A stretch of 62,012 nt of DNA, filler included, from Basidioascus undulatus (lineage: Eukaryota), in the NCBI GenBank assembly GCA_000826855.1. It is 6 parts of 6 records of this genome, joined end to end, with 100 filler letters (N's around TTAATTAATTAA, not from the genome) between each part and the next. Parts side by side here need not be neighbours in the genome. Positions count along the whole stretch, not along the records: positions 6,934 to 34,307 come from JTLS01000167.1; 5 more parts are not named here. One strand, written 5' to 3'. The translations under genes were made by a program, and so were the position numbers. Of the stretch, positions 7,312-33,532 are shown one piece after another. Each line of letters begins with the position of its first letter. Position 1 is the stretch's first letter. Below the pieces are notes generated by a model that had not been told where the DNA came from, searched no databases, and worked only from the letters and a program-made list of their open reading frames with translations.

Positions 7312-8317
7312 ATGGACACGATGCCCCCGTCCGAAGTCGCGTCTTTCCGAGCCGCGCTCAAGAGCGCAAAGCACATCGTCGCACTCGCCGGGGCGGGCTT
7401 GAGCGCGGCGAGCGGGATCGGGACGTTTCGCGGGGCGGGCGGTGAGTCTGATCACTTCCAAGAGTGGGTTTTGAAAAGCTTATGTTGTGATGGGATGTGT
7501 TCGCGTGGGTGGATAGGCCTCTGGAGGCAGTACGATGCCCTAAGCCTCGCGACGCCCGAAGCCTTCGCTGAGAACCCATCCCGGTGCGTCTCTCCCCCCG
7601 CATCCCATCTCCTGCTCAACCACGAAACCCTCCGCGCCTCAGGGCAGCGTATGGCAGTTCTACCACGCCCGTAGGGAGACCGCGCGGGCCGCTGTCCCCA
7701 ACGCCGGGCACCTAGAGCTCGCGCTCCTCTCCTCCCCCACACAGCGCGCGTCCCTCGCCCCCTCCTCCAAGTCCTTCACGCTCATAACCCAAAACGTCGA
7801 CGGCCTCTCCCCGCGCGCGGTGTCCACCGCCGCGCCCAACGGCGAGGGCGAGCCCCCGCTCGAGATGCACGGCTCCCTGTGGCGCACGATCTGCACGTCC
7901 TGCCACACCGTCTCGCCCAACACGGACTCGCCCATCTCCCCCGGGCTAGCAGGGACGGAACACCACCCTCTCACCGAGCGTGAACTCCCCCTCCCGCGCT
8001 CCGCACTACCGCACTGCGCCTGCGGAGGCCTGCTCCGCCCGGGGGTAGTCTGGTTCGGGGAGACGCCGCCCCACCTTGAGAACATTGACGGGATTCTGAG
8101 GAGGTGCGATCTGTGCCTTGCGGTGGGCACGAGCAGCACGGTGTACCCCGCTGCGGGGTTTGCGGGGGGCGTGAGGAGTAGGGGAGGAAGGGTCGCGGTT
8201 TTCAATCTCGAGGGAGAGGGAGGTGGGGGAGCGGCAGAGTGGTTTTGGGGCGGGAGGGCGGAGGAGACGCTGCCGAGGGCGCTGGGGGTGGAGGAGGAGG
8301 GGGGGGGGTTGGTGTAG
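7312..8317 (+). CDS. Sir2-family NAD-dependent deacylase, class III (SIRT5/CobB-like); 3 exons
   Basis: Motifs [33 protein letters not shown] (YxxR), TQNVDGL, EMHGS, CxxC..CxC zinc ligands, [20 protein letters not shown]. Stop TAG at 8315-8317. Confidence 0.93.
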
Positions 8318-8890
8318 AAGGTAGAGAGGGTATGAAGTTGCGAATACGACGCGGGAGGGGGTTGCATGCGAAGATTCCGCTGCGTACAGCAGCCCGTATG
8401 CCTCGGGCGCTGTTTGAGATGAGAAAAAAGGACAGACTGAAAAGATCATGGTAGTGTAATTAACAGTTTCAGAATCTCTTCAACTGCCCATCCTGCGCGA
8501 TTCACTGCTTTGTTCTCGACCTGCACGAGCCGGCGATTGCGTATTAGTCTCGATGTAAGATTCCACCCTCTACCCATTCACGAGCAATAATTCACTGCTG
8601 GCAAGACTACTTTTGTATGCGAAGCGCGCTGGTTCTTGAGCCTGCCTCCAAACCGGCAGATGGGCCGCTGGGCGATGCTGGAGACTGGAAAAAACCATTG
8701 AAGCGAAATAGTGGTCATCCCAAATTTGTCGTGAATCGTGATCATGCAAGGACATCAAGTTCATCCGAAAAGCGAAAGGATTAAGGCTATCTAAGTGAAA
8801 AGGAGGGAAGCGAGCGAAAAAAAATGCGGTATGCAAGCATCTGAACTTCCCGTGTGCGTATGGACGTCGTCAACCCTTCTATGCAAAAAT

Positions 8891-11429
8891 TTACTCGGCG
8901 TCCTCCTCGTCGTCCTCGGCAGCGAGCTGCGCCATGAGGAACGGCTCGATCCAGGAGTTGAAGCCGTCGTCGCCGCCGAACTCCTCTGCGAGCTTCTCGT
9001 CCTTCTCGAGGACCGAGAGCTTCTCGTCCTTGAAGCTGTTGGGGAAAGAGCCATGGTCGAACTGATGGCGAACTTTTACGGATGAAGAGAAAATTGACGC
9101 ACGTCGCCTCCCACTTGGCCCACTCGTCGTCGTTCAGGAGCGCAGCGTCGAGAGCCTTCTCGAGCTCGGCGTGCTTGAACGGCTGGGCGCCGCCACCGAT
9201 GAAGACGATCTGCGGAGCGCGGATTTAGCGTCAGAAACAAGATTGGGCGCTGTAGAAACGAGCTAACGCACCTCCTGGCGGCGGTCACCGTACGGGGCCT
9301 GGAAGATCTGATCGCGGATGCGCGCGGCCAAGGCGGCGTCCTTCTCCCACTCGCCCTTGGGCGGCTCCTCGTACCAGACATCACCAGGGGTGGCAGTGAG
9401 CTGCGTGACAGAATTCAGCATGCGAAGGGCTTGTAAAAGAGCGGGAAGCAGTCGCACCATGGCACCGGCCTGGCTCCACTCGCCGCCGACGGCGGTGCGG
9501 GTGGCGAGCCAGAAGAAGCCCTTGGAGCGAAGGAGCGGGCCGAAGATGGGGTCGGCCTTCTTCTTCTCGAGGATGACCTGGGGGTCGATGTCCTGGGCGT
9601 TCCGAAACAAGCGTCAGTTCGGTACTCATGCGCACAAGAGAAAAGGTGGCAGAGGAAACAACGGACCTCCTCCTCGTCCTCCTTCTCCTTCTTCTTCTCC
9701 TCCTTCTTCTCCTCGGTGGCCTTGCCCTTGCCCTTGCCCTCAACCTCCTCATCCTCAGCCTCCTCGTCGTCCTCCCAGTCCTCATCGTCGTCGTCCAGCG
9801 CCTGCATGATGGCGAACTTGTCGCCGATCAGGTCCATCAGGCGGCCGGGGTGGAAGGGGCGGCGGCGGCGGTAGACGAACGACTGCCGTGAACGAACAAC
9901 ACAGCCTCATTAGCTAGAGCTGGCTACCTAGGTGGCGTAGTATAGTATAGTACCGCGACGTTGTAGCCAGAGTTGCTGGTGGAGCAGTCGTCGCAGCCGT
10001 TGCAGTTGGCGTCGCAGGCCTCGGCCTTCTCGATCGCCTTCATCCACCCAGCACCCTTCTGCGCCCTAACCGCGAAGTTGCTGTGTGAGCCTACATTAAC
10101 CTAGTAACATGAAACAAAATGATTTACTCCTCGAAGTTGAAGAGACCAGTGTTGAGAATGCTCTTGGGCTCGATGATCGAGTGGTCGGTCTCGTAGATCT
10201 TCGCACGTGGGTTAAGCGCAGCGACGAGGGCGCGGACTCGAGCGACGTTCTCCTTGGGCGCAACGTCGGTCTTGTTGAGGAGAATGACGTCCGCGAACTC
10301 GATCCTGTTCCGCATGCAAGTGAGTCATGTGCGTCGAGGGTTTTGAAAGTTCCAAGTCCTACTGGCCAACAAGCAGGTCGGTGATCTGACGCGAGAACGA
10401 GGTTAGTCAAACGAACGCATATGAGAATCAGAGGAGTATAACTCACAGTCCGCTCGTCATCCTCGTCAGCGGAGCCATTCTTCTCGACAGGGCGGTCCGA
10501 GAGGAAGTCGATGGTCTCGAACTCGGCGAGAGCATTGACACAGTCAACAACGGTGACGCAGGTGTCGAGACGGGCCTTCAAATCGTACCCATCAGCATCC
10601 ACATCTTCGGCATATCGACACAAGAGGGAGACTTACGATCTTGGGCAGGCCACCCTTAGCCAGGAGCTCCTTGAGCTTAGGGTCCTCCTCCTCCTTGTCC
10701 TCCTCGTCCAGGCCCTCCTCATCGTCGTCCTCGAGCTCAGCCGCGAAGGTCTCAGCAATCTCCTCAGGGTCGGAGATCCCAGATGACTACTCCGCAACCA
10801 TGAGTTCCATTTCCCTGCCATCCAATCTGGACATCTTGAACGTACCTCGATGATCAGGTAGTCGTACTTGCCGGACTGGGTGAGCTCGTCAACCTGCTTG
10901 AGCAGGTCGACGCGGAGCGAGCAGCAGATGCAGCCGTTCTGCATCTGGTACACCTGAGAGTCGTCAGCCTCGGTGATGCCGTGCTTGGCGATGGTCTCGG
11001 CGTCGACCTAAGTCGGGAAGGGGGAGTGAGTAGGAGATGAGATGGAAGCGCGGGGTGCTATCAGCACGCACGTTCAACGACGCCATGTCCTGTTGGATGC
11101 GGGGTAAGGGATGTCAGGAGGAAAAAGGCATTGGATAGAGATGAAAGCACTGTTCCACAAACGTTGACGATAACGGCGCAGCTGCGACGTTGGAAGGGTC
11201 AGCATCCGCCGGCGACCCCATAGCCTTGCTTCGACACTCACCGGAGGCCATGCTCCTTGTTGGTGAGGATGTGCTTGAGCTGTTCCCGCCACGCCGCCGT
11301 CAGACCAGCACGCCCGCCACAATGCCTACAAATCTCTGAAGCTTGCCGGCTCACCAGAGTGGTCTTGCCAGCACCCAGGAAGCCCGAGAGGAGAGTGACC
11401 GGGAGGCGCTTGTCGACGGAGGAAGCCAT
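8891..11429 (-). CDS. COG0523/CobW-family (Zng1-related) metallochaperone GTPase, multi-exon with micro-exons
   Basis: LPVTLLSGFLGAGKTTL (Walker A), CAVIVN-DMASLN-VDA, NGCICCSLR (CxCC), DYLIIE, LDTCVTVVD, EFADVILLNKTD, SFVYRRRRPFHP, LRSKGFFWLATR, PYGDRRQE. Last exon ends ...EDDEEDAE* at TAA 8891-8893. Confidence 0.95.
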
Positions 11430-12453
11430 ATCGTTCAGTCCTGCTGCGGTGTGGGATGCGGCGGTGGATGGGAAGAAAGAAGAGGTGGACCCCTGCGAGT
11501 GAAAAGTTGGTCTTCCCTGGGGGGACGAGCACGGCTAACGGTGAAAAAGAAGACGCGAAGGCTCGAGCGCGACGGCCGGACGACGGTTGAGAGATTTTTG
11601 GGAAGACACCCACGTGAAAGATTACGTGAAGCTGTGTACGTGTGTTGCAGGGAGGCGCATTCGCAAAACCATCGAAAGCGAAGGACTCCTCCTTCGATAC
11701 TGCCATGAGTACGAAGATTCGAGAGCCAATATCGGGGGAGACATTAGCATGTTCGAAACGAAAGCGAACAGCTCGAACCGACGAAGAGGGGAGATTCCCT
11801 GAGGTGACTACTGGACTAGTTCGCGGAGCGGCATATCGATGCAGTCCCGCTTCGACTCCAGAAGTAAGTATTGAAGCTCTCCATACCGTCAAAATAAGCA
11901 AAAGGAAGGATGGGAGGAAGTGAGTGTTCGGAACGAAGAAGATATTCATCCACCGTGCAGAGCAGTCAGTCACTGCCATTGCTGAGGACCGCCTCCGCCA
12001 CCAACAGCGGCTTTGCTTCACTTTATATAGACCTTTATCCTCCCGCATGGTCCTTCTGAAGATCGTACATGAACAACTCACTTGCCGACCCTTGATTTGA
12101 TATACTCACAGCATTTCGAATGCTCCCGTACTACATCTCTGCGCAACAGACGCTGCTGCCCAGCGCCTGTGTCAAACCCCCGGACGACCCAATTTCAGCT
12201 CGCTGTGGGCCCCAACTTGTGTCGGTAGGGCCAGACTTATCCTTAAATTTTTAATCTACACCAGCATTCCCTCAACATAGAACTCGATCGCTTCGAGGCG
12301 GTCTTCTTTGCTGTGCGACGTCTTGCGGCAGCTCACGTGCACTGCGCTCGCCCTTCATCTTCGAGTGCGCCGTTTCTGTCACACGCATCATGTTCAATAC
12401 CTTCTCCCATATGCCCTTCGTCTCAGTCATATAGCACTACTTCATACCTTTCG

Positions 12454-14868
12454 ATGTCGAAACCCGACTTTCATACCCCCTCACAGGGCAACGAGATCGC
12501 TCTAGCTGAGCTTGCCCCGGCTCACATTCGCGACCCTACCGCGGACCTCAGCGCCGCCGAGGCAATCGCGGTCGTCAAGTCCTCAGAACTGGAGTCGCAA
12601 ACAAACCTGCCAGAGTCCCAGGCGGATCCGGAGGAAGATTTGGGGGAGGACATCGACTCAAAAGGGTTGTGGCTGCTCAGCGCACTTCACTTCTCGAGGT
12701 CAGTCCACCTTCGCAGGTTCCCGCAGATGCAGCTGACTGACCCGCACGAAATAGTACATGGGGTGACCGTTGTCTAGAGGTGCGAGATCACGCTTACTGA
12801 ATGCCGATAGCGACCTATCTAATAGTTTCTCGTTCAGTTTGGGGCATACCTCTTCCTCATCGAGGCATTCAAGAACACGCTGCTAGCGGCTTCGATCTTC
12901 GGCTTCTGTACAACCGGCGCTGCAATTCTTGTACGCATATTCCTTCTCCACCCTCAGGCATATTTTCAAAACGAATCTACCCTCAGTTCTCTGGCTCGAT
13001 CGGCCAACTTCTCGACGCTCACCGCCGCCTTCCCGTCCTGCGCACAGCCATCTCACTGCAGAAGGCGTCGGCCGCCGTTTGTTACGGATTGTTCCTCGTC
13101 CTCTTCCTCACTCCGTCGATGTCTTCTCAGGCTGCACGCGGAAGCGGAGCTGACGGCCCAGTATGGGCGGCCTTCACCGGCGTGGTCCTCTGTGGGATCG
13201 TCCTCAAGCTCGCGACCATTGGCGTGTCGGTCAGCATAGAGAGGGATTGGGCGACTACTATTGGGCAAGGCGGGAAAAGACGGTTGATGAAGTTGAACAC
13301 GTGGTTGAGAAGGATCGTAAGTTCTGCTGGTGGGTACGTGAACCTTGCTTCGTGACAGAACATCTGGCGTCCCAGGATCTGGTGTGCAAGCTCGTCGCGC
13401 CCTTATTCGTCTCTGCCTTGTGCATCCCCTACTTCCCTCATCCCCTCCTCTTTCCCTTCCCTCTCCGCGCTTCCGCGCCCCACTCACCTTCCCCCTTCCC
13501 AACCAGGACGGCCGGCGTCTCGTACTCTTTTGCGGCCGCGCTGCTATGCGGAATGTCTGTTGTGACGTTGTTCTTTGAGGTGTGTATCTCGGGCCTTTCA
13601 TAGAACACTGCATCGGAGCTCAAGCTGCTCTGAAGATCCCCATTTGCGGCGTCGTCTACAGCCGCTTCCCCGCGCTCGAGGCCGAGCAGGCTGAGCGCTC
13701 TCGCCTCGCTCCGGCGATGGGGACAAAGGTGCACAAGAGCCTGCTGGAATGGCTTGATCCCAGGCCTGCGATGCGGGATTGGGCCGAGTTCTCGCGGCTC
13801 CCGGTTTTCCTGAGTAGGTTGTGCCATTCGGCTTGCCCAGCAGGTTCGCTGATCTTCAGAACTACTGCAGCGTCTTTGTCCATCTCGAGCGTGTACCTTA
13901 CGGTATGTCCCTTTCATGCGTGTCGAATTTCAGAGCTTTGAACGTGCTCAACTATCGTTATCCAGGTACTCTCTTTCGACGGCACCTTCCTCTCGTACCT
14001 CAAGTCCGCGCGGAGTTGGGACGAGTGCGTCTTTCCCTATTCTCCGCGCTCACTGGGGAGACTCAGCCCTTTTACCGCTTCCCAGTCCGTTCATCGCCGG
14101 CATGCGGGCTATTTGCGCGGTCACGGGCTTGGTCGGAACCGTGCTGCTTCCGTTTGTGGAGCGTAAGCTCGGCCTTATCCGCGCCGGTAGCTGGTCTATC
14201 TGGTGGGTTCCCACTGTTGTCATATAGTCGATCGATATTGATGCCGAAATATCGCCAGGTCCGAAATCATCGCGCTCATTCCAGTCGTCATCGCGCTGTA
14301 CGTCGGCGCACCCGACAGCATCTCCAAGGGTCCAGCCTGGAATTCATCCCTCCTTTTCGGAGGTAATGCAACGTTTAGGCCATTATTTCCATGTTAAGCA
14401 ACGCCTGAAATGCATGGGACTTTCACAGGCATGGCCGCGAGCAGAATCGGGCTTTGGATGTTCGATCTCGCTCAAGTTCAGATTCTGCAAGAGGCACTCG
14501 AAGATCATCCGCGTCGGAATGCGCTGACTGCGCTGCAGTACTCTCTCCAGGTTTGTTCCACTCGTGCCCCTAGTTTAAGCGCTTGTACTAACCGACTTGA
14601 ACAGAACACCTTCGACATGCTGGTACGCTTGTTCTCCCTCATTCTATCTGAAGTCAATCCTTTCTCATCTACTAGGTGATCATTGCAGAAATACGTTCTC
14701 ACTATGATCCTTTCGAACCCGAAAAAATTTAAATGGGCCGGACTTGTTTCTTGGATGGCTGTCTTCGTCGGCGGTTGTCTGTTCGTCGCATACGTTCGCC
14801 GGGTCCGGGGTCATTTGGTGCATTCCGAATGGGCACAACGCCTGTTGGGAGGGAAGAAGAACCAGTAA
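12454..14868 (+). CDS. Ferroportin (FPN1/SLC40/IREG) family divalent-metal exporter, multi-exon
   Basis: HFS-TWGDR, FSGSIGQLLDAHRRL, VSIERDW, LNTWLRRI-DLVCKLVAP, SISSVYLT-LSFDG, GMAASRIGLWMFDLAQVQILQE, QYSLQ-NTFD are the FPN1 family signatures. Stop TAA at 14866-14868. Confidence 0.92.
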
Positions 14869-15416
14869 CATTCATTTCCGAGAGTTTGTTTCAGGTCCGC
14901 TGGTCGATATGCACTGCCGAGTTCATGCGTTCACTATCCAAGCTCGCAAGCCTTCGCGGCTTAACTGAGTTGCTATGATGGCTCCGCTAACGACGAAACC
15001 CAGCCCTAGATGATTGTGGATTGTGTGCAAGTTCAAAGAGTTGGTTTTCATAATATGCGATGCCCAATTTCGGCGTTACCCAAGGCACACCGGAAGAACA
15101 GAACAAAGCTGTAGCCTTGTTCGACCCGGGGCAGCGGTGAACGGTTGCACCTTCGGCATTCTCCCGCGTCCCCTACTTTGCCTTGAGGCTTATACTAGAC
15201 AATGCGATATTCGGGACTAGAAACCTGCCAAAATTGAGAATGTCATATTGCCTCCGGCCCAACGGTTCCCCCAAGTTCCCCCACTCTGCTAAACGGACCA
15301 AGACGGCACCTCGAGCTTCAGTGCCTGTCCTGCGTCCGCAACTTCTACCGCCTTCGACCACCTCACACACAAAAGCGCAGCACACGGTAGGTGTCCAAAA
15401 ATATTGAGCTATGGTG

Positions 15417-15546
15417 ATCCAACTAGAGCAATCGTTCAATATCGTAACTAGGTATCGCTCAAGCTCGTGATAGAAGACGGAATCCAACTAGAGCAATCGT
15501 TCAATATCGTAACTAGGTATCGCTCAAGCTCGTGATAGAAGACGGA
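15417..15546. repeat. Exact tandem duplication of a 65-bp unit
   Basis: ATCCAACTAGAGCAATCG...GATAGAAGACGGA occurs at 15417-15481 and again at 15482-15546. Confidence 0.95.
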
Positions 15547-15554
15547 ACAAGCGA

Positions 15555-17844
15555 TTAAGCCCACTTGCCGCTGTACATCGCCGGCCGTGAGGTCAGTAAA
15601 TGCGCTTGAGGAGGCACCGAATAAAATACAAAACGCACAGGAGAGTCATACAGAATGTGCCCAAAAACAGGCTGAGACCAGCGAAGGCGAGCTTGCGCCA
15701 CTTCGCAGTCGCCAGTTCGCCGTGCATGAAGTCGTGAACGAGAAGCTCGACAATTCCGGCATATAGCAGAATGCCCGCCGAGATGGAGTCGAGGATGCCG
15801 ATCGAGAGAAGCGCCGCCCCCGAGTTGGGGTTGTAAGAGCTGTGGACGCCAATGCCAATCGCGATACCGATGGGAGTGATGAACTGTGATAGAGCGCGTT
15901 CGGTGTGAGTTACACATGGCGGCGGGGATACATAAAGATATGGAAAAGGAAGAGAAAGAATGTCTGTTACGCACGATGAAGCATGCACCCATAAGCCACT
16001 TCTTCCACAGTTGCCCCTTAGGGAAGATGAGCAGTCCGATACGAGCGCCGAGACCAAGCGCCTCGAAGAACTGGTGGAAGGTGATGGCGCAAAGAAGGGG
16101 AATCCACTCGCTGCCGCCAGTTGCCCCGAGCGAGACGCCGATCATGATCTGAGTATTTCGCATGTCAGCCACGCATGGGAAGGTCTAGTACACGCGAAGA
16201 AGTAAACGTACCGAGTGAAAAATGATGCCGGCCTCGAGCAGGAGCACGTCAAAGTGTGCCTGCTTCGAAGAGTAGTCCATCGCTTCGTTCACGCCGCCGT
16301 GGTGATTGTGCGCGAAGTCGATCCCGCCAGGGGCGACAGCAGAAGCTCCCTTTTCGAGCCTGGAAGTGTCAACGCATGTCAGCATCTACTTAGGCGTACC
16401 AAACAACGGGCCCAACGCACCCATCATGGCCGTCGCTGCTGCCGTCGCTGGTCGCATGCGCGTGCGCTGCGGCGTGCTTCTCCGCCCGACCCTTCATGTA
16501 CCGCATCCCAAAGAAGTCGATGAAGCTGGAGCATTACAGTGTGCATGTGAGGGGGTTAGTGTGGGGGGGGATGAGGTTTTAACTGGGGACTGAGATCGCA
16601 CAAGACGACATAGACTCCGGCCATTGCAATCGCGGATGCGACCGGTTCGAAGACGAGCTCGCCGAGACAGGCATTGCTGAACATGATAAAGGCGTGGTAC
16701 AGCAAGTGGACGACTAAGGATCGCAGTTCTCGTTCAGAAGTATACTGTAGGTAATCGAGGCGTGGATGCTTACAGGCTGTGGAGATGATGACGCCGGTAC
16801 CGCTGACGGTTCGGAAAAGGGTCAGCTTGAAGCGGGCGAGAATGTGCAACGGAAGATCGTACAAGTGCTTGGCAATGAAGAATACGTTTCGGAACAACGG
16901 CGTGGCCGACCATTGCGAGGTGAAAATTGGGATGAAGATGCCCAAAGCCGAAGCGACGAGGAGGATGCTGTGGACAACGGATGGAACTCGGTCAGCGGAG
17001 AAACGAGTTGCATCGAGCAAAGGGCAGGCCACGGACAAAACCGAACCGATATGCAATCCTTGATCGTACTCGCCCAAGTCGATTCCATTACATTGGCCAG
17101 AGCTGGAAGGCAAGCAAGCGGTCTGATTAGCTGCTCTGAAGAGCCAGGACAGAAAGTGTGTGCGCCGGTCGGCATCGCGACAATGAAAGAACACACCAAT
17201 CACCGTGCGTGTGGCCGCCATGGACGACACAGGTGCTGCCGCTGGAGCCTCCCTCTCCGCTCGAGCTCGAGAAGACTTCGCAAGTCCACACGCTCTGAGA
17301 TGGCACCAATGGAGAGTTAGCCTTTCACCTCAACACGGGCAAGAATGTCGCGCTGATACAGCGCACCCCTCAACTCGGAGAAATGAACGTACAGTCGCTT
17401 CGTCGAGCTCACACAAGCTCCCGTCCTCGCAGTCCCAGTGCCCGATATGCGCGGTGCACTCGCGCCCGGGAGGCCCGTCCGACGAGCCGGCAGAGCCTGA
17501 ACCCGAGCTCGACGCGCCGACGCAGGAGAAGGCGTCCGTATTCCATGTGCAGAAGGCACCGTTGTCGCACAGCCAGGTGTCGGTCTGTTTCAGGTGAAAG
17601 AAGCGGGAAAGCCCAGGTCAGGGTGACGAATCAGGGCGAGTCTGTCTGTCACTCTTGTACGCACCCCGGTAGAGGAGCAGGTTCCCTGCCCTGATGGGCC
17701 GTCGGCTTGAGTGCCCTCAATAGTCGTCGACTGACGCTTATGGAGCTCCGTGAGACCCCAGGCAGGGGCTACACGGAAGGAATAAGCGGTATTGACGAGG
17801 AAGGTAAGCGCGAAGCTGGTGCCGACCGCGGAGACAGCTTTCAT
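15555..17844 (-). CDS. ZIP (Zrt/Irt) zinc transporter with signal peptide and Cys/His-rich extracellular N-terminal domain (ZrfC-like architecture)
   Basis: Hydrophobic N-terminus MKAVSAVGTSFALTFLV; ECTAHIGHWDC and TCVVHGGHTHGD; EYDQGLHIG, FGTGVIISTA, VHLL, LLEAGIIFHS-IMIG, FHQFFEALGLG, DSISAGILLY, GKWA*. Confidence 0.93.
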
Positions 17845-19008
17845 CTTGGCGTCTTCCGTCCTCTGAATGAGGAATGAGGGCTGAACGGTTGAGATGGGAG
17901 GAGACGAGCAGGCAACGAGAAAGAGCCACACTACGACTTTTATTGGATGAACACGCAGCAAGGGAGCACATATACAACGTAGGTAGCAGTAGAAGCGAGG
18001 TTGGCTTGGCGGGAAGAGGAGGGGACCGTCGCGGTGACTGGCGTCGGAGAGCACCGCGCGCGGTCGCTTCGACGCGTCGGGGCCACAAAACGGCCTCGGT
18101 CGAGCTTCGAATCAGTAACTGTTACCAAGGCAAAAAGTAACAGATCTGAATACTTCATGGCGGCTGTCAGGATGGTGGCCGCATGGCCCTTGTGCGGTTC
18201 AACCGCAAAGGAGGATGGCCGCAACCAGATTGCGGCGGACGCCAGTACTGAGTGCCAAGAACGCACAACTGCTCGATATAATGGGAAGCAGTCTGCATTG
18301 ACAGGACGAGTACATGAATGCACTGGGAAAGCAATCGATGTTCATTCCGGATGAGAGCTGAGCGGTACAGGTACGAAATTGTACGGAAAGTCCGCACTGC
18401 CGCTCAAAGTGTCCTTTCATGGGCAGCTAGGGCTCGCTATATCTGCAATGCAGTCTCTTTCTTCGCAAGGGACACTTCTAGTTTCCCAAGAAAATGCTCT
18501 ATGTTATCTCAAGAATGAGAGATTGTGCAAAGACACGTATCGTGCTATCCGTCGAACACAACCTCGTACGGCAACCTGCCCCGGCAAAGACGGTAGGCAC
18601 TTTGGTTCAGAAAGGCATGAGCAATGAGATCATGACAGCTTTATGTGTCGCTAAACGGGGGCAATAAAGCTTTTCAGTGAGCTGCAGACTATTGAACGTT
18701 GAGGGTTGCGGCGATCTAAGGAGGCCCTCCTCAAGACGTGACCCGCCAGGGCTTCCCTTGGAAGTGCACGGGGTTCTGTCATTAACATCCAATAAAATTC
18801 TGATTCTATACCTAGAGTCGAGCAGTCGAGTGCCGAGGAGAACAAAGGAAAGAAAGAGCGAGCGTGAAGCCGGGATGCTTCGGCCCGAGGCCCTGGATCC
18901 GAGGAAGCACCAGGGGCCAACAGCCCGCAGTCGGTGCTCAGCTCGTCGTTGAGCACGGCCTGCTCTCTATCCACGATAGACATCTTATAGCCGCATTCGC
19001 TTGATAGC

Positions 19009-22226: not shown

Positions 22227-25200
22227 CTAAGCATACTCCTCCACATTGCCGCACTCGCAGACCTGAAGTATCCCAGTGATTAGCGGGAGACGGGAAACCA
22301 AGAGGCAGGAGAGAAAGCGCACGAGGTTGCGGTCGCCGTAAGCTGTGATAACGACGTATTGCAAGTCAGCACGCCGTCTCGAGATCGAACCCCCAGCGGA
22401 ACGCACCATCATCCACCCGGGCAACGGACGGCCAGAACTTATCCTTCCTCAGCCAAGGAAGCGGGTACGTGGCCTCCTCGCGCGAGTACGGCCGCGCCCA
22501 GTCCTTGTCGCTGCGAGTGACGAGCTCGATCGTGTGCGGCGCGTTCTTGATCACGTTGTTCTCGCGGTCGACAGCGCCAGACGCAATAGCGTCGGCTTCG
22601 CCACGAATATGGATCATGGCGTCGCAGAAGCTGCGAAGCGGTTGTCGATCAGCCTCGGTCGTCAGGAAGCCCATGGAGAGTGAGTGAAGTCGCACCGGTC
22701 GATGGCCTCCTTGTTCTCAGACTCGGTCGGCTCTGTGTAAAACAGGAATTAAGGTAAGTGCTACTTCACGGCGGATGTCGTCGAAGTACGTACCGATAAG
22801 CATGCCGGTCGAGATGGGCCAAGAGCAGGTAGGCGGGTGGATGCCGAAGTCCTGTAGACGCTTCGCAAAGTCCATAACCTTCAAACCCGCCGTGGCGTCG
22901 AACTCGGCGAGGTCAAGCAGGAGCTCGTGCGCGACGCGGCCCTTGGCGTTCGAGTAGCGCAGCGTGTAGTGGTCCTTGAGGCGGTGCGCGATGTAGTTGG
23001 CGTTAAGGAGCGCGATCTTGGACGAGTACGTCAGGCCAGCGCCGCCGAGCATTTTGATATATGCTGCGATTGGAGACGTAAGACCAGGGAGCGAGGACAG
23101 CGGGCGGCCCAGAACAAGGAAACGCACCCCAAGAGATGGTGAGGATGGAAGCCGAGCCTTGCGGTGCGGCGGAGACGGGAGAGATCGACTGCGGCGTGCC
23201 CCACTTGGACAGAGGGTGCCCGGGGAGGAAGGGCGCAAGGTGCTCGGCCACGCAAATGGGTCTGTTCGAGCAAGTGCTGGGTCAGAACCATGCTGTGACC
23301 CGTCGACAATCCGCGCCACCTACCCGATACCAGGACCACCACCACCGTGGGGACTGCGTCGATATGTCAATCAGCGATGGTCATCTACCCATAAAGACAG
23401 TAAAACGTACATGCTGAACGTTTTGTGCAAGTTCAGGTGGCAAACGTCACCGCCACACGTGGCAGGGTTCGTAAGGCCAACCTGGGCGTTCAGGTTTGCG
23501 CCTGTTTACGGTATTCTCGCAGTGAGCTTTCTGAATGGGCATCGCAGTTGGGAGGCCACAACGCACCGTCGAGGTAGACCTGCCCGCCATGCTGGTGGAC
23601 GATGGCGCATGCCTCTTGCACGCCCTCCTCGAAGACACCGAACGTCGAAGGGTAGGTGACCTGAAATGATCTGATGCTTGAGACGAAATTGGCGGCAGAT
23701 AATGGGGGTAAGAGGCGCACCATGAACGCAGCCAGGTTCTCCGAGTGCTTCTCAGCCTTGGCACGGAGGTCCGCCATATCGAGGCTGCCATCCTTGAGCG
23801 TCGCGACGGGGACGACCTTCATGCCGGCCATGGTCTGCCATCACACGCAGGTATGAGCACAATGCAACAAATCGAGGCATGGTCGAACGTACCGCCGACG
23901 CGGGGTTGGTACCGTGCGCCGAGCCAGGAATCAAGCAAATGTCGCGCTTGTCGCCCTCGCCGCGCGACTCGTGGTACGCCCTGCGCGATGTCTCAGCGAC
24001 CTAGCATGCAAAGACATGTGGACAAAATCGACGCACTTGATGACCGACAGGCCCGCATACTCGCCCTGCGCGCCGGAGTTTGGCTGTAGGCTCGTAGCCG
24101 CGAAGCCAGTGATCCGGCTGAGGTCGTCCTCCCTGTGGATATTGCATCGTCAGCACCCAACAGACAACCACTGGAAAGGTAGACATACAGCTCCTTGATC
24201 ATCTGAGCATACCCCTGCGCCTGCTCGTCAGGCACGAAGGGGTGGATCGAGCCCCACTCGGGCTGCGTGAACGGCGTCATGGACGTGACGGAGTTGAGCT
24301 TCATCGTGCAGCTGCCGAGCGGGATCATGGCGTGCACGAGGGAGAGGTCCTTCGACTGGAGGTGGTGGATGTCTGTAATGCGGTGGTTAAGCTTCAGCTT
24401 ACGCGATCCCAGGGAGGCTCGAAAGGAGGCTTACAGCGAAGAAGGTCGGTCTCGGAGTGGTACTTGTTGAAGACACTGCACATCCGCACACGGCTCAGCG
24501 ATGAATGTACGAACGCTAGGAAAGACGAAAACTTACGGCTGCTGCAAGTACTGAGAAGTGCGCGCGAGCTGCGGCAGCTTGATGCTCTCGAGCTCCTTCG
24601 CGCCAAGCCCGAGCTCCTCCGCAATGCTCTCCAGCGTGCCCGGCGTGACCTTGCCCTCGCCGCCCTTGGCCTTCTCGAACACCTCGAGGAGCGTGAGCAG
24701 GTCGCGCTCGTTGGCGCTCTCGTCTAGCGTCAGGCCCACGCGCGTCGCGTCGATCTCACGCAGGTTGACCTGCGCAGCGCGCGCGGCGGCGTGAACGGCG
24801 GAGGCGTCAGGGACTTGGATGGTGCTGGTAGGCAGGCGTCTGTGTCAGCGAAGCATGATAGGGGAGACATGCGAAGCGAATTGCGCACACCGTGTCGAAG
24901 AAGCTGTCGGCGTTCTGGATCTTGTAGCCTGCGCGCTCTAGGCCAGTCTTCACCACACGCGTGTAGGCGTGGACCTTGCCCGCGATCTTGCGCAGACCCT
25001 CCGGTCCATGGTAGACGGCTGCGAGACAGGCCAAAACATCAGTGCCGTCCGAGTATATACGGTACTTCGCATCCAAACGCACCATACATAGCCGCCATGT
25101 TGGCAAGCAGCGCCTGCGCGGTGCAGATGTTGCTGGTCGCCTTGTCCCGCCTAATGTGCTGCTCGCGCGTCTGGAGCGCGAGCCGGTACGCGGGGCGGCC

Positions 25201-26543
25201 CTCGGCGTCCTTGCTAATGCCGATCAGGCGGCCGGGCATGCGACGCTTGAGCGCGTCCGTGCAGGCGAAGAACGCCGCGTGCGGGCCACCGTAGCCGAGG
25301 GGAACGCCGAACCGCGCCGAGTTGCCCACGACGATGTCCGCGCCGAGCTCCCCGGGTGGAGTGAGTATCGTGAGCGCGAGGAGGTCGGTCGCGTAGACGA
25401 CAAGGCCCTTCGCGGCGTGCACAGCGGACGCGACCGAAGAGTAGTCGTTGATGCGGCCGTCGACGTCGGGCTATAGAGGCGATACTGGTTCAGCTCGGCA
25501 CAAACGGGTTTCGGGACTGCATGACGTACGTATTGGAGAAGGACACCGATGAGGTCCGACTTGATGCTCTCATCCTCGAGCGCAGCCTGGACGTCCGACA
25601 CGATCTTCACGTTGATGCCGAAGCCCTTGGCGCGGGTCTCGAGGACAGCCATAGTTTGCGGCAAGACGCCGTCGTCAACGAGGAACGTCCGCTTCTTGCG
25701 GTTCGCGGAGCCGAACGCCATCACCATCGCCTCGGCAGCAGCTGTAGCCTAGTATCAGACGGAAACAATCAGCATCAATACCGCCACTGCTGGGCATACA
25801 GGCGCACCTCGTCAAGAAGAGAGGCGTTCGCGATGTCCATCGCTGTGAGGGAGGCGACCATGGTCTGGAAATTAATGAGAGACTCAAGGCGGCCTTGGGA
25901 GATCTCGGGCTGGTAAGGGGTGTAGGACGTGTACCACGCAGGCGATTCGGTGACCTGAAGAAGAAGACGCTCAGCACTGCATGATCGCTGAGCTTAGAAA
26001 TATTACCCTACGTTGCGCAGAATGACCGGAGGAACAACGGCGTTCTGTGGCAGAGCGCTATTGTCAGTGACGCAGCCCAAATCAACCCGATAAGCTGCGA
26101 GGACGACTCACATGGTAGCCCATCCCGATCCAGCTCTTATACACCTTGTTGTCCTTCGCCAGCTCCCTCGCCCTCGCGGCAAGCTCGGACTCACTCAGCG
26201 GGGGAATGCTCTCGTCGCATACTTTCGCCGTGTCTATGCGAATGCTCTGGGGAACGGCATCAGCGACGAACGCAGCGAGAGACTTGTAGCCCAGCGCGCC
26301 GAGCATCTCGTTGACTTCTGCGTCGCGCGGGCCGATGTGTCTACGCGTAAAGGTATCGAGGGGGGCAAAGATGGAGGAAGGCTTGGTAGGAGGGACATCG
26401 CCGATCGAGTACGTCGCGAGGAGGCGGGCGGATCGGGGCAAGGGTATGGGGAGGGAACGAGGGAGAGTGCGATAGGCGCCGCCTGCGCTGAGGGTGGGCG
26501 GCGCTGCCCTAGGGAGGGTGAGACGAGTCGCACGGCGAAGCAT
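22227..26543 (-). CDS. GCV2: Glycine dehydrogenase (decarboxylating), mitochondrial glycine cleavage P protein
   Basis: Mitochondrial-type presequence, [125 protein letters not shown]. Confidence 0.97.
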
Positions 26544-29514: not shown

Positions 29515-31675
29515 TCACAAGCTGCCCTCTGTACATCGAAGTACGGCCCAAGCTCCACCCAGTCAGTAGACCGCCGCAAACGAGCGTCAGCCACCCACAT
29601 CATAGGACGTACCGTCCATCTTGGCCTTGTCTGCATCCCCAACCCATCTCCCATCAGCTCCGGCCGCATCCCAGTGAGTCGAAGAAGAGGCCAACACGCA
29701 CAATACCGGACCATCTCCTCCACGCCCATCTCGACCGTCCACTGGGGCTGCCACCCGAGCGTCTCCTTCGCGCGCGTCGTGTCCGGCCGGCGCCGCTGCG
29801 GGTCGTCGACGGGGACGGGGCGGTAGACGATGTCGACGCGCCTTCTCCTCCTCGGCTTTTTCTCCCCCTCTTGCAGCTTCTCCTCCTTCTCCTCCCCTCC
29901 GCCATCCTCCACCACGTTCTCGAGCGCCTTCTTCAGGTCGCCGGACGAGAACGACAATCCGAGGCCCGTCCTCCTTGCCGTCCCCTCCTCCTCATCCTCC
30001 TCCTTCAGCACGCGCTCCACGATGTCCCTGACAGCCTTGGCGAACTCCTCGATGGTGAACTCGTCCTGGTTTCCGAGGTTGACGGGCTGCGTCTCGGACC
30101 CGTTCATGAGGAGGACGAGGCCGTCGACGAGGTCGTGGATGTACTGGAACGAGCGCGTCTGCGCGCCGTCGCCGTACACCGTCATGTCCTCCTCGCGCAG
30201 AGCCTGCACGATGAAGTTGGACACGACGCGCCCGTCGTGTGGGTTCATCCGCGGCCCGAACGTGTTAAAGATCCGCGCCACGCGCACATCCACCCCGTCC
30301 TGCCGCGCGAAGCCGTACGTCAGGCACTCGGCGACCCGCTTGCCTTCGTCGTAGCACGCGCGAGGGCCGATCGGGTTCACGTTGCCGTTGTACTATGTGT
30401 AATGAAGAATCCGCTTCAGCCCACACCCTCCTCGTCTGTGCGATGGGACGGAGACTGCGCACCGTTTCAGGCTGCGGGTGAACGAGCGGGTCACCGTAGA
30501 TTTCTGCAGCAGCAACACTGTCAGCACGAACTTCATCAATGACAATACAAGCAAAGCAGCGCGACGTACCTGATGTGGAAGCCATCAAGAACCGTGCCTT
30601 CGTGCGCTTCGCCAGCCCGAGCATGTTGAGCGTGCCCAAGAAGGACGTCTTGATCGTCTTGACAGCGTTGTACTGGTAATGCGGTGGTCTACCCGAATCC
30701 CCACCTCATCAGCACACATCGCTCCTCAGCCCAGCCTACATCGGATGCGACGCACGATGCCGGGCAAGCTGATGCCCGCGCAGCATTTCAGTCAACCCTC
30801 CCAGCACCCCCATCCCAAAGTCGATCAGCTCACCGAGGTGGTAGATCTGGGTGCTGCCCCGCCCGTCCGCTCCTTCAGCACCCTTCCCGGCAGTCAACCC
30901 ACCTTCCGCACACCGGGACTCACCACTCTGCCATGAACGGCTCCGTCACGTCGTGTCTGACCATCTCAAAGTTAGGGTGCCCCGCCCAGTGCGCGAGGTT
31001 CGTCTTGCTCCCCGTAAAGAAGTTGTCGAGGACGATGACCTCGTGGCCGAGGAGCATCAGGCGGTCCACTGCCCGTGCGTGCCCGCCCTCTCCGTGAGCC
31101 GAAAGGACGAGGAAGATGGGGGAAGGGAGAACGGGGGAGCGACGCACCGAGATGGGAGCCTACGAACCCGGCCCCGCCCGAGACGACTATGCGCTCGCGC
31201 TGGTGCGGGGGGAGCATCTTCACGGGCGGGTACGCTTTCGAGCGGGGGTAGGCACTGCGCACCGTCCACCCCGCATCAGCACAATTCCCCACCCACCACC
31301 CCAGCAGTAACCCCTCTTCCTCCGTCCCATCGCCAGCGCAACTCACACGAACGTCTGCTCCGGCCACTCCGGGTACGGGCTCCTCCCCTCCTCCTGCTCC
31401 TTCTCCCCCGCGCCGTTAAGCAGCGCGCTCCTCGCGCTGCTCCGTCTCCTCTGGCGCTCGTCCGCGCCGCGGCGGACGGCCTCACTCTCCTCCGGCGAGC
31501 CGAGGTACAGACTGCGGAGGAGGTCGATGGGGACGCGCGAGTCGAAGCCGAAGCGGTCGACGCCCGCGTGCGTGATCTCGCGCCCGTGCTTGCCAATCGC
31601 TGGGGAGGCCGGGCGCGGGGACTGGGATACCGAGGACCGGCGCAGGGCGCCGGGGAGTTGAGGGGTTAGGGTCAT
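29515..31675 (-). CDS. UXS1: UDP-glucuronate decarboxylase (UDP-xylose synthase)
   Basis: [101 protein letters not shown]. The last exon (…DEGSL*) is inferred. Confidence 0.95.
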
Positions 31676-32080
31676 TGCTGGGTGAGGAGGGAGCGGAAGA
31701 CAGGAGGCAGGAAGAAGGGGGAGGAGGACGGAAGAGGAGGACAGAAGAGAGAAGAGCGAGAGGGAGGCTTGCTCGGACGACTCAATCACACACTCCGTCA
31801 CCGCGCCGGATGGACCGGTCGCCGCGTCCGTTTCCATGGTGTGAATCTAGTTGAACAGACTGCCAGCTTTCCAGTTAAATTATCGCTCACATGCACGAGG
31901 GCAAGTTGACGATGCTGAGGGGAGCAGGGCTGTTGCCTTCCCCCAGCCTTGCAGAGTAGCACTTCCACCGTCACACATAACCCCGACCAAACGAGCCAGC
32001 AATCAAGGAGTCCGGCAAAGCCAAAGCATATGCATGCGTCATAGTCCCGCAAAGCTCAGCGATGGTCCATGGCGATGCGT

Positions 32081-32970
32081 CTAGTAGACGTCTGTTCCCG
32101 ACACAACGCACAATCAGCAACGGCCTTCCACTTGCACTTCACAAAACGACGTTTACTCACAGCCGAGGATCTTGCCACCGACGTGCTTGCGACGGGCCTC
32201 CTCGTGGTCCATGATGCCGGACGAGGTGGTGAGGATGATCTTGCCGAAGGAGCGGGCGGGGAGGAGGAGCGCGACCCAGTTCTCGATCTGCGAGACCTGG
32301 ACGTTGAAGCGCGGCGAGATGACGCCCGTCTTGTTCAGCCGGCCGTTGAGCTGGATAACAATCTTGCCCGAGCGGTGATCGTCGACCTCCTCGAAGTCGC
32401 CGATGTAGCCTGATCCCCAACAACGTCCATCATACACCATCAGCGTCTGGAGCGAGGGAGTTGATGAGAGGATGAAGTGATGAAGAGAGATAAGATGTCC
32501 GCATTTCGAGCTAAGCCGCTCGACCGGGAGATAGAGGAAGGGCGAAAGAAGCCCAAAATGAAGCGGGTGAGATGATATCTCGGAGCGTTAAAGAATGAAG
32601 TCGGGCGAAGGGGGCGACGAGGCGCTGCCGACTGCAAACAGTTATCACTCCGAACCCTCGGCGGGTGAGGGACCACCGAGGCGTGCGTAACGTCGAGATG
32701 GGCATCAAGAGGGAGAGAAAGAGAGGAAGAGAGATGGGAAGGGAGGGAAAGGGCGACTCACCGTGCTTCTGCATGACCGAGAGGAACTTGACGACGACCT
32801 TGGAGCTCGGGCGGACGAGCACCTGGCGCTTGCCGCGGCGCTCGGCGTTGACGATCGAGTTGAGGCAGTCGTTGAGGACGGAGACGCGCTGTTCAACCAC
32901 ACCAAGATCCACCCAAGTCAGCCCGCGCCGCTGCTGTTCGCCAGCCATCCGCTCTGAGACGTACGACCAT
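32081..32970 (-). CDS. RPS22: 40S ribosomal protein uS8 (S22/S15a); 4 exons
   Basis: [71 protein letters not shown]...GGKILG-YVY*. Confidence 0.98.
32493..32654 (-). ncRNA. Intronic box H/ACA snoRNA, snR44-like
   Basis: In RPS22 intron 2 (sense strand): hairpin CGGAG-TGATAACTG...TTTAA-CG-CTCCG, H-box ATATCA, second hairpin CCGC...GCGG, then ACA + 3 nt. Pocket strands ATAACT and TTTAA complement the 18S motif UUAAA-UC-AGUUAU (recalled from memory). Confidence 0.75.
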
Positions 32971-33532
32971 CTTGGCTCTCTTTGCTTGAAGTTGCCGGAA
33001 AAGAGAGGGCTGGGGGAGGGAGGAGGGAAACCTGCGGGTCAGCGACAGCCACTAGCGCCTCACCGCCGACGGGGTGCACGCAAGGAACCAGCTCCCGTGG
33101 CCCGTCGGGGTTGACCCGTGTGAGGGCACCGCGCGCAAGCACGCGGTGTGGCAGGCTCTGAGGGTATCCCCGCGCAGGGGAGCACGAGAGCGGCCAGGCG
33201 GCATAGTGGACCGGGGAAGGCAGGGGGATGGGGAGTGTTGGGAGATACGCACGCGAGCGAGGAGGACGACGACGACGGGGAAAGGAAAGGAGAAGTCGAA
33301 ATGCGGGCAAGGCATGGCAGGCAAAGTCTTCTCGAGCGCGGGACTTCCGCGGGGAGAGCGAGGATTGAAAGTTTGAATACTATTGACGGCAGGTTCAATA
33401 GTGTGAGTTACTATGCTTCCCCCGCGACCGGCCCTGAAGAGCGAAGAAAGTCGAGTCGGCCCTGGGCAAGCGCTCTTCGAGTGTTGAAGTGGTCGTCCTC
33501 ACCTCCATTTTTACCCTCCTCAAGAAAGCAAA

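Follow-up and report, generated by a model that had tools for sequence, protein, structure and literature searches.

Three metal-handling genes lie side by side on one Basidioascus undulatus contig

The window analysed here is a 62,012-nucleotide (nt) stretch of the Basidioascus undulatus genome (assembly GCA_000826855.1) made up of several contigs with N spacers between them. One of these contigs (JTLS01000167.1, our C745; window positions 6934-34307) bears three metal-handling genes: a COG0523 G3E GTPase of the MchC/ZigA type, a ferroportin (SLC40/FPN1) and a ZIP importer of the Zrt/Irt subfamily. A sequence-only reading of the locus had described them as a CobW chaperone, a ferroportin exporter and a ZIP importer that together make up a co-regulated module for zinc limitation. 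We confirm that the adjacency of these three intact genes is real.

The COG0523 gene runs from 11429 to 8891 on the minus strand (15 exons, 544 residues; its stop codon finishes at 8891), the ferroportin gene from 12454 to 14868 on the plus strand (14 exons, 539 residues), and the ZIP gene from its ATG at 17844 to 15555 on the minus strand (12 exons, 489 residues, with introns from a hand-built model). Assembled exon by exon from coordinates, the models give three open frames with GT-AG introns only, 54-98 nt in length. In a Pfam scan of the exon frames, PF02492, PF06963 and PF02535 all scored above cut-off, bearing out the earlier identities, and PF07683 scored 21.7 bits on the COG0523 gene, just under its cut-off of 22. 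A spliced aligner recovered 13/13 ferroportin introns with a Guyanagaster ferroportin query and 14/14 COG0523 introns with a Seiridium COG0523 query; the same aligner added two spurious gaps, both in acidic low-complexity stretches of COG0523. The COG0523 and ferroportin genes diverge from a shared intergenic region of 1024 nt, ATG to ATG (11430..12453), which is a candidate bidirectional promoter, and the ferroportin and ZIP genes converge with 686 nt from stop to stop. This is the arrangement that had been described, with about 1.0 kb between the divergent pair. No further gene was found between them: 0/17 intergenic and flanking frames had a Pfam match at E<=0.01, and Rfam gave no match over 8300-19000.

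Misassembly had been named as a way in which the cluster could prove false, and the assembly evidence differs between its two halves. Two DNA runs, X1 and X2, each have a contig that extends through both the COG0523 and the ferroportin gene; these runs may be source data of the assembly and are therefore not independent support. The join between ferroportin and ZIP is unbridged by any listed contig of X1, X2 or a third run, X3, across 15446-15518. The X1 and X2 contigs both end here, at a 65-nt tandem duplication (15417-15547) whose copies are identical; it starts 8 nt beyond the stop codon of ZIP and probably belongs to the ZIP 3' untranslated region. The 65-nt unit has a short contig of its own with raised depth, a 59-nt contig joins its two copies, and the repeat stretch has a single match in the genome, at 15417-15547. 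This pattern of contig breaks is as expected of a true two-copy tandem repeat.

Run X3 is listed as DNA and contains spliced contigs. Fourteen of the 15 splice joints listed agree with modelled introns, ten in COG0523 (10/14 of its introns, among the joints listed) and four in ferroportin, whose 18-nt exon 13 is present in this run; the fifteenth is a masked repeat stretch. No ZIP joint is among these 15, beyond which there are 33 further joints. Skipping of COG0523 exon 11 was considered and rejected: in X3, the apparent 'skip' of 359 nt (9594-9954) covers sequence that the tool had masked as repeat, and a 1941-nt X3 contig agrees with a transcript that retains the exon. Arithmetic on X3 contig sizes and bin depths implies transcript cover up to ~11560 and from ~12400. 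The depths themselves (99 for the COG0523 contig, 83 for the ferroportin contig and 1.6-7.3 for ZIP bins) cannot rank the genes and are counted neither for nor against co-regulation.

The clustered COG0523 GTPase and its paralogues

Motif definitions for MchC-like proteins were taken from PMC12584730 and its supplement. The clustered COG0523 protein has Walker A (residues 16-23), GChCCxx[KRH] (75-82), Walker B hhhExxG (101-107) and hhhNKx[DE] (212-218), followed by the signature RxKGxx[WF]x14Gx10[WF] at residues 395-427 with an acidic region upstream. In these GTPase motifs, the signature and the acidic region it resembles Aspergillus fumigatus MchC (AFUA_8G02620; related ZigA/ZagA), and the signature also occurs in 116/118 fetched MchC-like relatives. 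Exons 5 and 12 have ZigA NF038288 as their best NCBIfam match, far under the whole-protein cut-off because exons alone were scanned.

Unlike MchC, the clustered protein has no His-rich tail (0 His in the final 40 residues; at least three in 110/118 relatives and five in the paralogue on contig C1912), and it lacks PE[TS]xEY, a linker motif that we observed in the fetched set, with no published criterion behind it, and that is present in 118/118 fetched MchC-like proteins and in C1912. In its place is a four-cysteine linker (approximately 9981..10013, minus strand; about residues 281-291, exon 10), a candidate extra metal site. None of the 107 relatives with a locatable anchor has three or more Cys in this linker. 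In the copy on C1679, a Cys/His-rich linker likewise replaces PE[TS]xEY.

A further difference from MchC is that the clustered gene is one of at least four MchC-like paralogues in the genome. As lower bounds, COG0523 matches fall on seven contigs (C1912, C1000, C1679, C235, C745, C2257 and C1592), ZIP matches on three, and ferroportin at one locus. The clustered COG0523 groups in one clade (support 0.999) with C1912, C1000, C1679 and a partial copy on C235, an expansion of at least four MchC-like paralogues and one partial; a Zng1-like gene lies on C2257. Judged by sequence, the clustered gene is a derived paralogue, and the canonical MchC orthologue is C1912. No other contig with a COG0523 match was found to hold a ZIP, ferroportin or Pra1 match as well, the contigs being short; on C1000, a cation-efflux (CDF) gene lies ~19 kb from the COG0523 paralogue (12430-12645 and 31429-33500).

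The closest named relative of the clustered protein is Wallemia hederae E3P99_01169 (TIA91260.1; grouping support 0.997), whose best match in this genome is in turn the clustered locus. Both proteins lack PE[TS]xEY and the His tail; unlike the clustered protein, to which it is ~38% identical, E3P99_01169 has an altered Walker A and no Cys linker. With that altered Walker A in the Wallemia orthologue (P0235), and with neither Walker A nor GChCC in P0164, this paralogue may in that lineage be decaying into a protein that is no longer a GTPase. MchC-like proteins of smuts and Malassezia (P0306, P0311, P0332, P0188 and others) carry an N-terminal HIT domain (PF01230), perhaps as fusions or merged gene models. 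The clustered gene also has a very strong codon bias, like that of highly expressed genes, with G+C at third codon positions (GC3) of 0.88 and A at third positions of 0.009; GC3 is 0.71 in ferroportin and 0.74 in ZIP.

Expression of A. fumigatus mchC goes up ~2,600-fold in the absence of zinc, and MchC probably serves GTP cyclohydrolase I (PMC12584730). COG0523 subfamilies serve several metals, and gene clustering has been called uninformative for eukaryotic COG0523 (PMC2770081). The earlier treatment of the COG0523 and ZIP genes as zinc-starvation genes holds in part: the MchC signature and the Cys/His extension of the ZIP speak for it, and the status of this COG0523 as a derived paralogue speaks against it.

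The ferroportin

The ferroportin is full length and the sole ferroportin locus found in this genome. Human-type iron exporters bind metal through D39/H43 and C326/H507. In human numbering, the clustered protein retains D39 (D86 here), D325 and D504 and has E90, G346 and K481 instead of H43, C326 and H507, so that the human-type ligand set is not present. E, G and K are the usual states at those sites, found in 48, 44 and 42 of 52 fungal rows. For the relative P0130, structure matches include human and Bdellovibrio proteins. One ferroportin exon used alone as query matched two proteins.

The protein is 61-65% identical to ferroportins of Armillaria, Desarmillaria and Guyanagaster and, within the 52-row set, at most 54% identical to any other. 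The clade of these three genera comes out as its sister in trees of 52 and 131 rows; two FastTree runs give this grouping a support of 1.0, and it recurs in the best tree of an unfinished IQ-TREE run. The trees were drawn from the best 120 of 252 matches, deep nodes are unresolved and paralogy is common. Paired ferroportin copies 17-21 accession numbers apart were seen in three Armillaria species (P0073/P0128, P0122/P0076 and P0124/P0002), a local duplication.

A. fumigatus FpnA (Afu5g12920), the one characterised fungal ferroportin in the literature found, is vacuolar and protects against Ni, Co and Ga, not against Fe, Zn, Cu or Cd; its overexpression deprives urease of nickel (PMC11890741). 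The clustered gene belongs to the same fungal family and, by analogy, likely encodes a vacuolar Ni/Co detoxifier. 'Exporter' is accordingly the wrong default, FpnA being a vacuolar protein that handles neither Fe nor Zn. Of the roles first proposed, Ni and Co detoxification fits the FpnA data, and export and Fe handling are not supported by them. Urease is encoded in this genome; its alpha subunit shows complementary profile ranges on C129 and C541 and is therefore probably one gene divided by a contig break.

The ZIP importer and its N-terminal extension

Besides its match to PF02535, the ZIP has a TIGR00820 match in exon 10. Seven hydrophobic segments exceed the scan threshold and an amphipathic transmembrane helix 5 (TM5) falls below it; His motifs lie at residues 344 (TM4) and 370 (TM5). 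The profile match, about eight helices, these motifs and a His-rich loop place it in the Zrt/Irt subfamily.

Ahead of the first helix is an N-terminal extension of ~170 residues (17100..17844, minus strand). Behind a likely signal peptide come two repeats of four Cys each and two Cys/His motifs, at residues 103-112 and 146-157, joined by Gly/Ser linkers; residues 24-168 hold 11 Cys and 6 His. The signal peptide and the four-Cys repeats were read by eye. The same kind of motif was not found upstream of the other two Zrt-type ZIPs (C2601 and C1235), and exon 2 had no match in Pfam, NCBIfam or Atlas. The extension is reminiscent of ZrfC, a member of the ZrfC / Candida Zrt1 clade with its N-terminal Cys/His zinc-binding repeats, but the spacing of its Cys/His motifs is unlike that of the ZrfC motif and unlike that of the Pra1 motif CHTHXXGXXHC (PMC12663325).

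Neighbouring genes and host lineage

The cluster is flanked on the left by a Sir2 family gene and on the right by a DXD glycosyltransferase (Pfam). A TcdA_TcdB assignment for the right-hand neighbour was weak (E 0.039, below cut-off) and was set aside in favour of a plain DXD glycosyltransferase. Farther along the contig, genes for the glycine decarboxylase P protein (22700-26540), UDP-glucuronate decarboxylase (29800-31400) and ribosomal protein S15a (32200-33000), all on the minus strand and recognised by eye, are ordinary housekeeping genes. A bacterial origin of the trio was considered and dismissed because all three genes are intron-rich (introns per kb: ferroportin 8.0, COG0523 8.6, ZIP 7.5) and their best matches are fungal.

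The earlier placing of the locus in a Pucciniomycotina setting is not supported. Eight contigs have hydrophobin matches and 17 have AA9 matches, numbers of a kind unlike a Microbotryomycetes yeast, and the clustered genes group with Wallemia and Armillaria. These lineage signals conflict, with COG0523 pointing to the Wallemia lineage and ferroportin to Armillaria, and the conflict suggests either that a gene moved horizontally or that paralogues were lost differentially.

Comparison with known systems

The Arabidopsis IRT1/IREG2 system follows a logic like the one proposed below for the trio, in which a vacuolar ferroportin backs up a promiscuous ZIP; it differs in that it belongs to iron starvation, its genes are not known to be adjacent and no COG0523 is known to take part. 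Vacuolar nickel storage by plant IREG is mentioned in PMC11890741. In fungi, a parallel in arrangement is PRA1-ZRT1, a widely conserved divergent pair of zinc genes (PMC5751234, PMC11185503). Like PRA1-ZRT1 and aspf2-zrfC, the B. undulatus cluster is a compact fungal locus with a candidate divergent promoter and a ZIP importer. Unlike them, it has no Pra1, there being no Pfam match in the three frames upstream of ZIP. Here the ZIP is convergent and off the divergent promoter, and the partners are COG0523 and ferroportin. Pra1-like HRXXH (PF13933) matches are on C949 and C2285 only, so the trio is not the PRA1-ZRT1 locus. A further contrast with that widely conserved pair is that the trio was not found elsewhere in the fungi checked.

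All three families are known in fungi, and their combination did not appear in the literature searched. No description of the trio as a cluster was found in full text, a search that leaves most subscription papers outside, and unseen supplements may bear on it. The word 'cluster' is absent from the main text of the MchC paper (PMC12584730), as are 'adjacent', 'CobW' and 'ZafA' from the FpnA paper (PMC11890741).

A possible zinc-starvation cluster

We put roughly even weight on the reading that the trio is a zinc-starvation cluster restricted to this lineage, with a ferroportin that clears co-imported Ni and Co. When zinc runs short, the ZIP, aided by a Cys/His extension on the outside, would scavenge Zn2+ at the plasma membrane and would also admit some Ni2+/Co2+, which ferroportin would transfer into the vacuole. 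The MchC-type GTPase, expressed from the intergenic region it has in common with ferroportin, would pass zinc to client enzymes or, alternatively, may buffer metal via its Cys-rich linker. Induction by zinc starvation is carried over from MchC, and vacuolar detoxification of Ni, Co and Ga from FpnA, both presumed from the homologue literature. The promiscuity of the ZIP, protein localisation, selection for the linkage and co-regulation of the three genes are what we infer. Several points favour this reading: the low chance of such an adjacency, considered below; the MchC signature, together with the zinc response of mchC; the detoxification of Ni, Co and Ga by FpnA; and PRA1-ZRT1 as a fungal precedent for a divergent pair of zinc genes. 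Of the three Zrt-type ZIPs, the one in the cluster alone showed a Cys/His extension, and COG0523 and ferroportin both appear as spliced contigs in one run, X3.

Several results weigh against it. The linkage, which had been suggested as a possible undescribed fungal module to be sought by synteny, was not found in the distant fungi compared. Ferroportin stood beside MchC in 0/14 decidable basidiomycete assemblies, where adjacency was judged from locus tags and contigs and the MchC was the canonical one, not the clustered paralogue. These assemblies are Microbotryomycetes plus one smut, all distant, and each protein list consists of the best 120 matches. Fifteen assemblies had both genes listed: 11 carry them on unequal-sized contigs, three on an equal-sized contig (32, 124 and 323 tags apart), and one, R. 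graminis WP1, is undecidable, with an equal-sized contig for both genes and non-positional identifiers. Pairs from R. paludigena and Rsb. nylandii were left out, as their two genes come from different assemblies. Ferroportin and MchC thus share an equal-sized contig in four Microbotryomycetes assemblies (JCM15063, JCM10908, MNV49 and RHOBADRAFT), 32-323 tags apart where countable, a loose linkage that is possibly ancestral and does not amount to independent observations.

Likewise, neither COG0523 nor ZIP was found at any of 80 metagenomic ferroportin loci searched by tblastn and COG0523 profile, the best 80 of 112, which are mostly short and the sole set for ZIP adjacency. At least 2.5 kb is available upstream in 20/80 and downstream in 29/80 of these loci, and in 6 and 13 among loci with at least three segments. 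The same searches detected the COG0523 paralogues of B. undulatus itself as a positive control. A Pfam sheet for Wallemia ichthyophaga gives 4 cobW, 3 CobW_C and 5 Zip proteins and has no PF06963 row (PMC3849046), so that this species may lack ferroportin.

Also on the negative side, the promoters give the proposed co-regulation no support. Neither the shared intergenic region nor the sequence upstream of ZIP contains a Zap1- or ZafA-like site, and an exact-word scan of 11 promoter stretches found no enriched shared word beyond multiple testing; its best raw p was 3e-4 among thousands of words, promoter limits were approximate and degenerate motifs could escape it. Expression of fpnA is reported to be constitutive, with no response to Ni, Co, Cu, Ga or Fe, and neither deletion nor overexpression of fpnA alters zinc tolerance (PMC11890741); zinc starvation is not among the conditions seen in the available text of that paper. 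Unlike fpnA, the ferroportin here has an intergenic region in common with an MchC-type gene. Zinc regulation of the clustered COG0523 is itself borrowed from a paralogue, since C1912 is the canonical orthologue. Finally, very many windows were surveyed, and among them some chance triplets will appear.

Alternative explanations

The strongest competitor, though in our judgement an unlikely one, is neutral juxtaposition: rearrangement would have brought together three ordinary metal genes that are independently regulated, with a constitutive ferroportin. The lack of linkage in the 14 assemblies and 80 loci, the lack of a shared promoter motif and the constitutive fpnA all agree with it, as does the expansion of COG0523 to ~7 loci, which raises the chance of finding one beside a metal gene. 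Against it, with 60-100 metal genes among 6,000-12,000 genes, any three adjacent metal genes are expected 0.001-0.03 times per genome, and this trio, if specified beforehand (ferroportin beside one of ~7 COG0523 and one of 3 Zrt-type ZIPs), has a chance of ~3e-7 to 1e-6; all gene numbers are assumed. Moreover, it is the MchC-type COG0523 and the extended ZIP that flank the ferroportin, rather than the Zng1-like gene or either of the plain ZIPs. Chance adjacency is thus unlikely for one genome, yet not negligible across a large scan.

We think it improbable that the divergent COG0523-ferroportin pair makes up the functional unit, with Ni/Co rather than Zn as its metal and the ZIP incidental. 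The derived GTPase would then bind Ni/Co and feed or regulate a vacuolar ferroportin, balancing the supply to urease. The loss of PE[TS]xEY and the His tail, the gain of the four-Cys linker and the common intergenic region would suit this, as would the presence of urease in the genome, the competition of FpnA with urease for nickel (PMC11890741) and the several metals served by COG0523 subfamilies (PMC2770081). On the other side stand the intact MchC/ZigA signature and the Wallemia orthologue without a Cys linker. In general, too, Cys clusters bind Zn more often.

It is a little more doubtful still that a horizontally moved ferroportin, common with the Armillaria lineage, was inserted between members of an older COG0523-ZIP pair, with or without later co-regulation. 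Its identity to Armillaria-clade proteins, grouped with full support, would fit such an insertion, as would the placement of the adjoining COG0523 with Wallemia as reciprocal best locus and the missing PF06963 row for W. ichthyophaga. If the host is an agaric near Armillaria, however, the ferroportin is simply vertical; the unresolved deep nodes of the ferroportin tree and common paralogy also count against insertion, and the ferroportin resembles its neighbours in intron density and the ZIP in GC3. That ZIP was joined to the other two genes by misassembly at the 65-nt repeat is very improbable: no listed contig crosses the join, but the contigs show the pattern of a true tandem pair, the stretch occurs once in the genome, and the other two genes share a contig in both DNA runs.

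Returning to the zinc-starvation cluster, we tentatively offer a more specific version, which we hold to be rather less probable than the general one. A ferroportin that is elsewhere constitutive, and possibly horizontally shared with the Armillaria lineage, may have come under the control of zinc starvation by way of a bidirectional promoter that it shares with a neofunctionalised four-Cys COG0523, letting a high-affinity ZIP run without nickel or cobalt poisoning.

The case so far is one genome, and if the three genes are not co-induced, they are ordinary genes that became neighbours by accident. If the trio is co-induced, a fungal coupling of zinc scavenging to Ni/Co clearance becomes testable, and the locus offers a way into a derived COG0523 whose Cys-rich linker is new. 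The cluster, if the more specific version is true, would indicate a partner for a COG0523 paralogue of so far unassigned function, and fungi would have, as a gene cluster, their own counterpart to the IRT1/IREG2 logic of plants.

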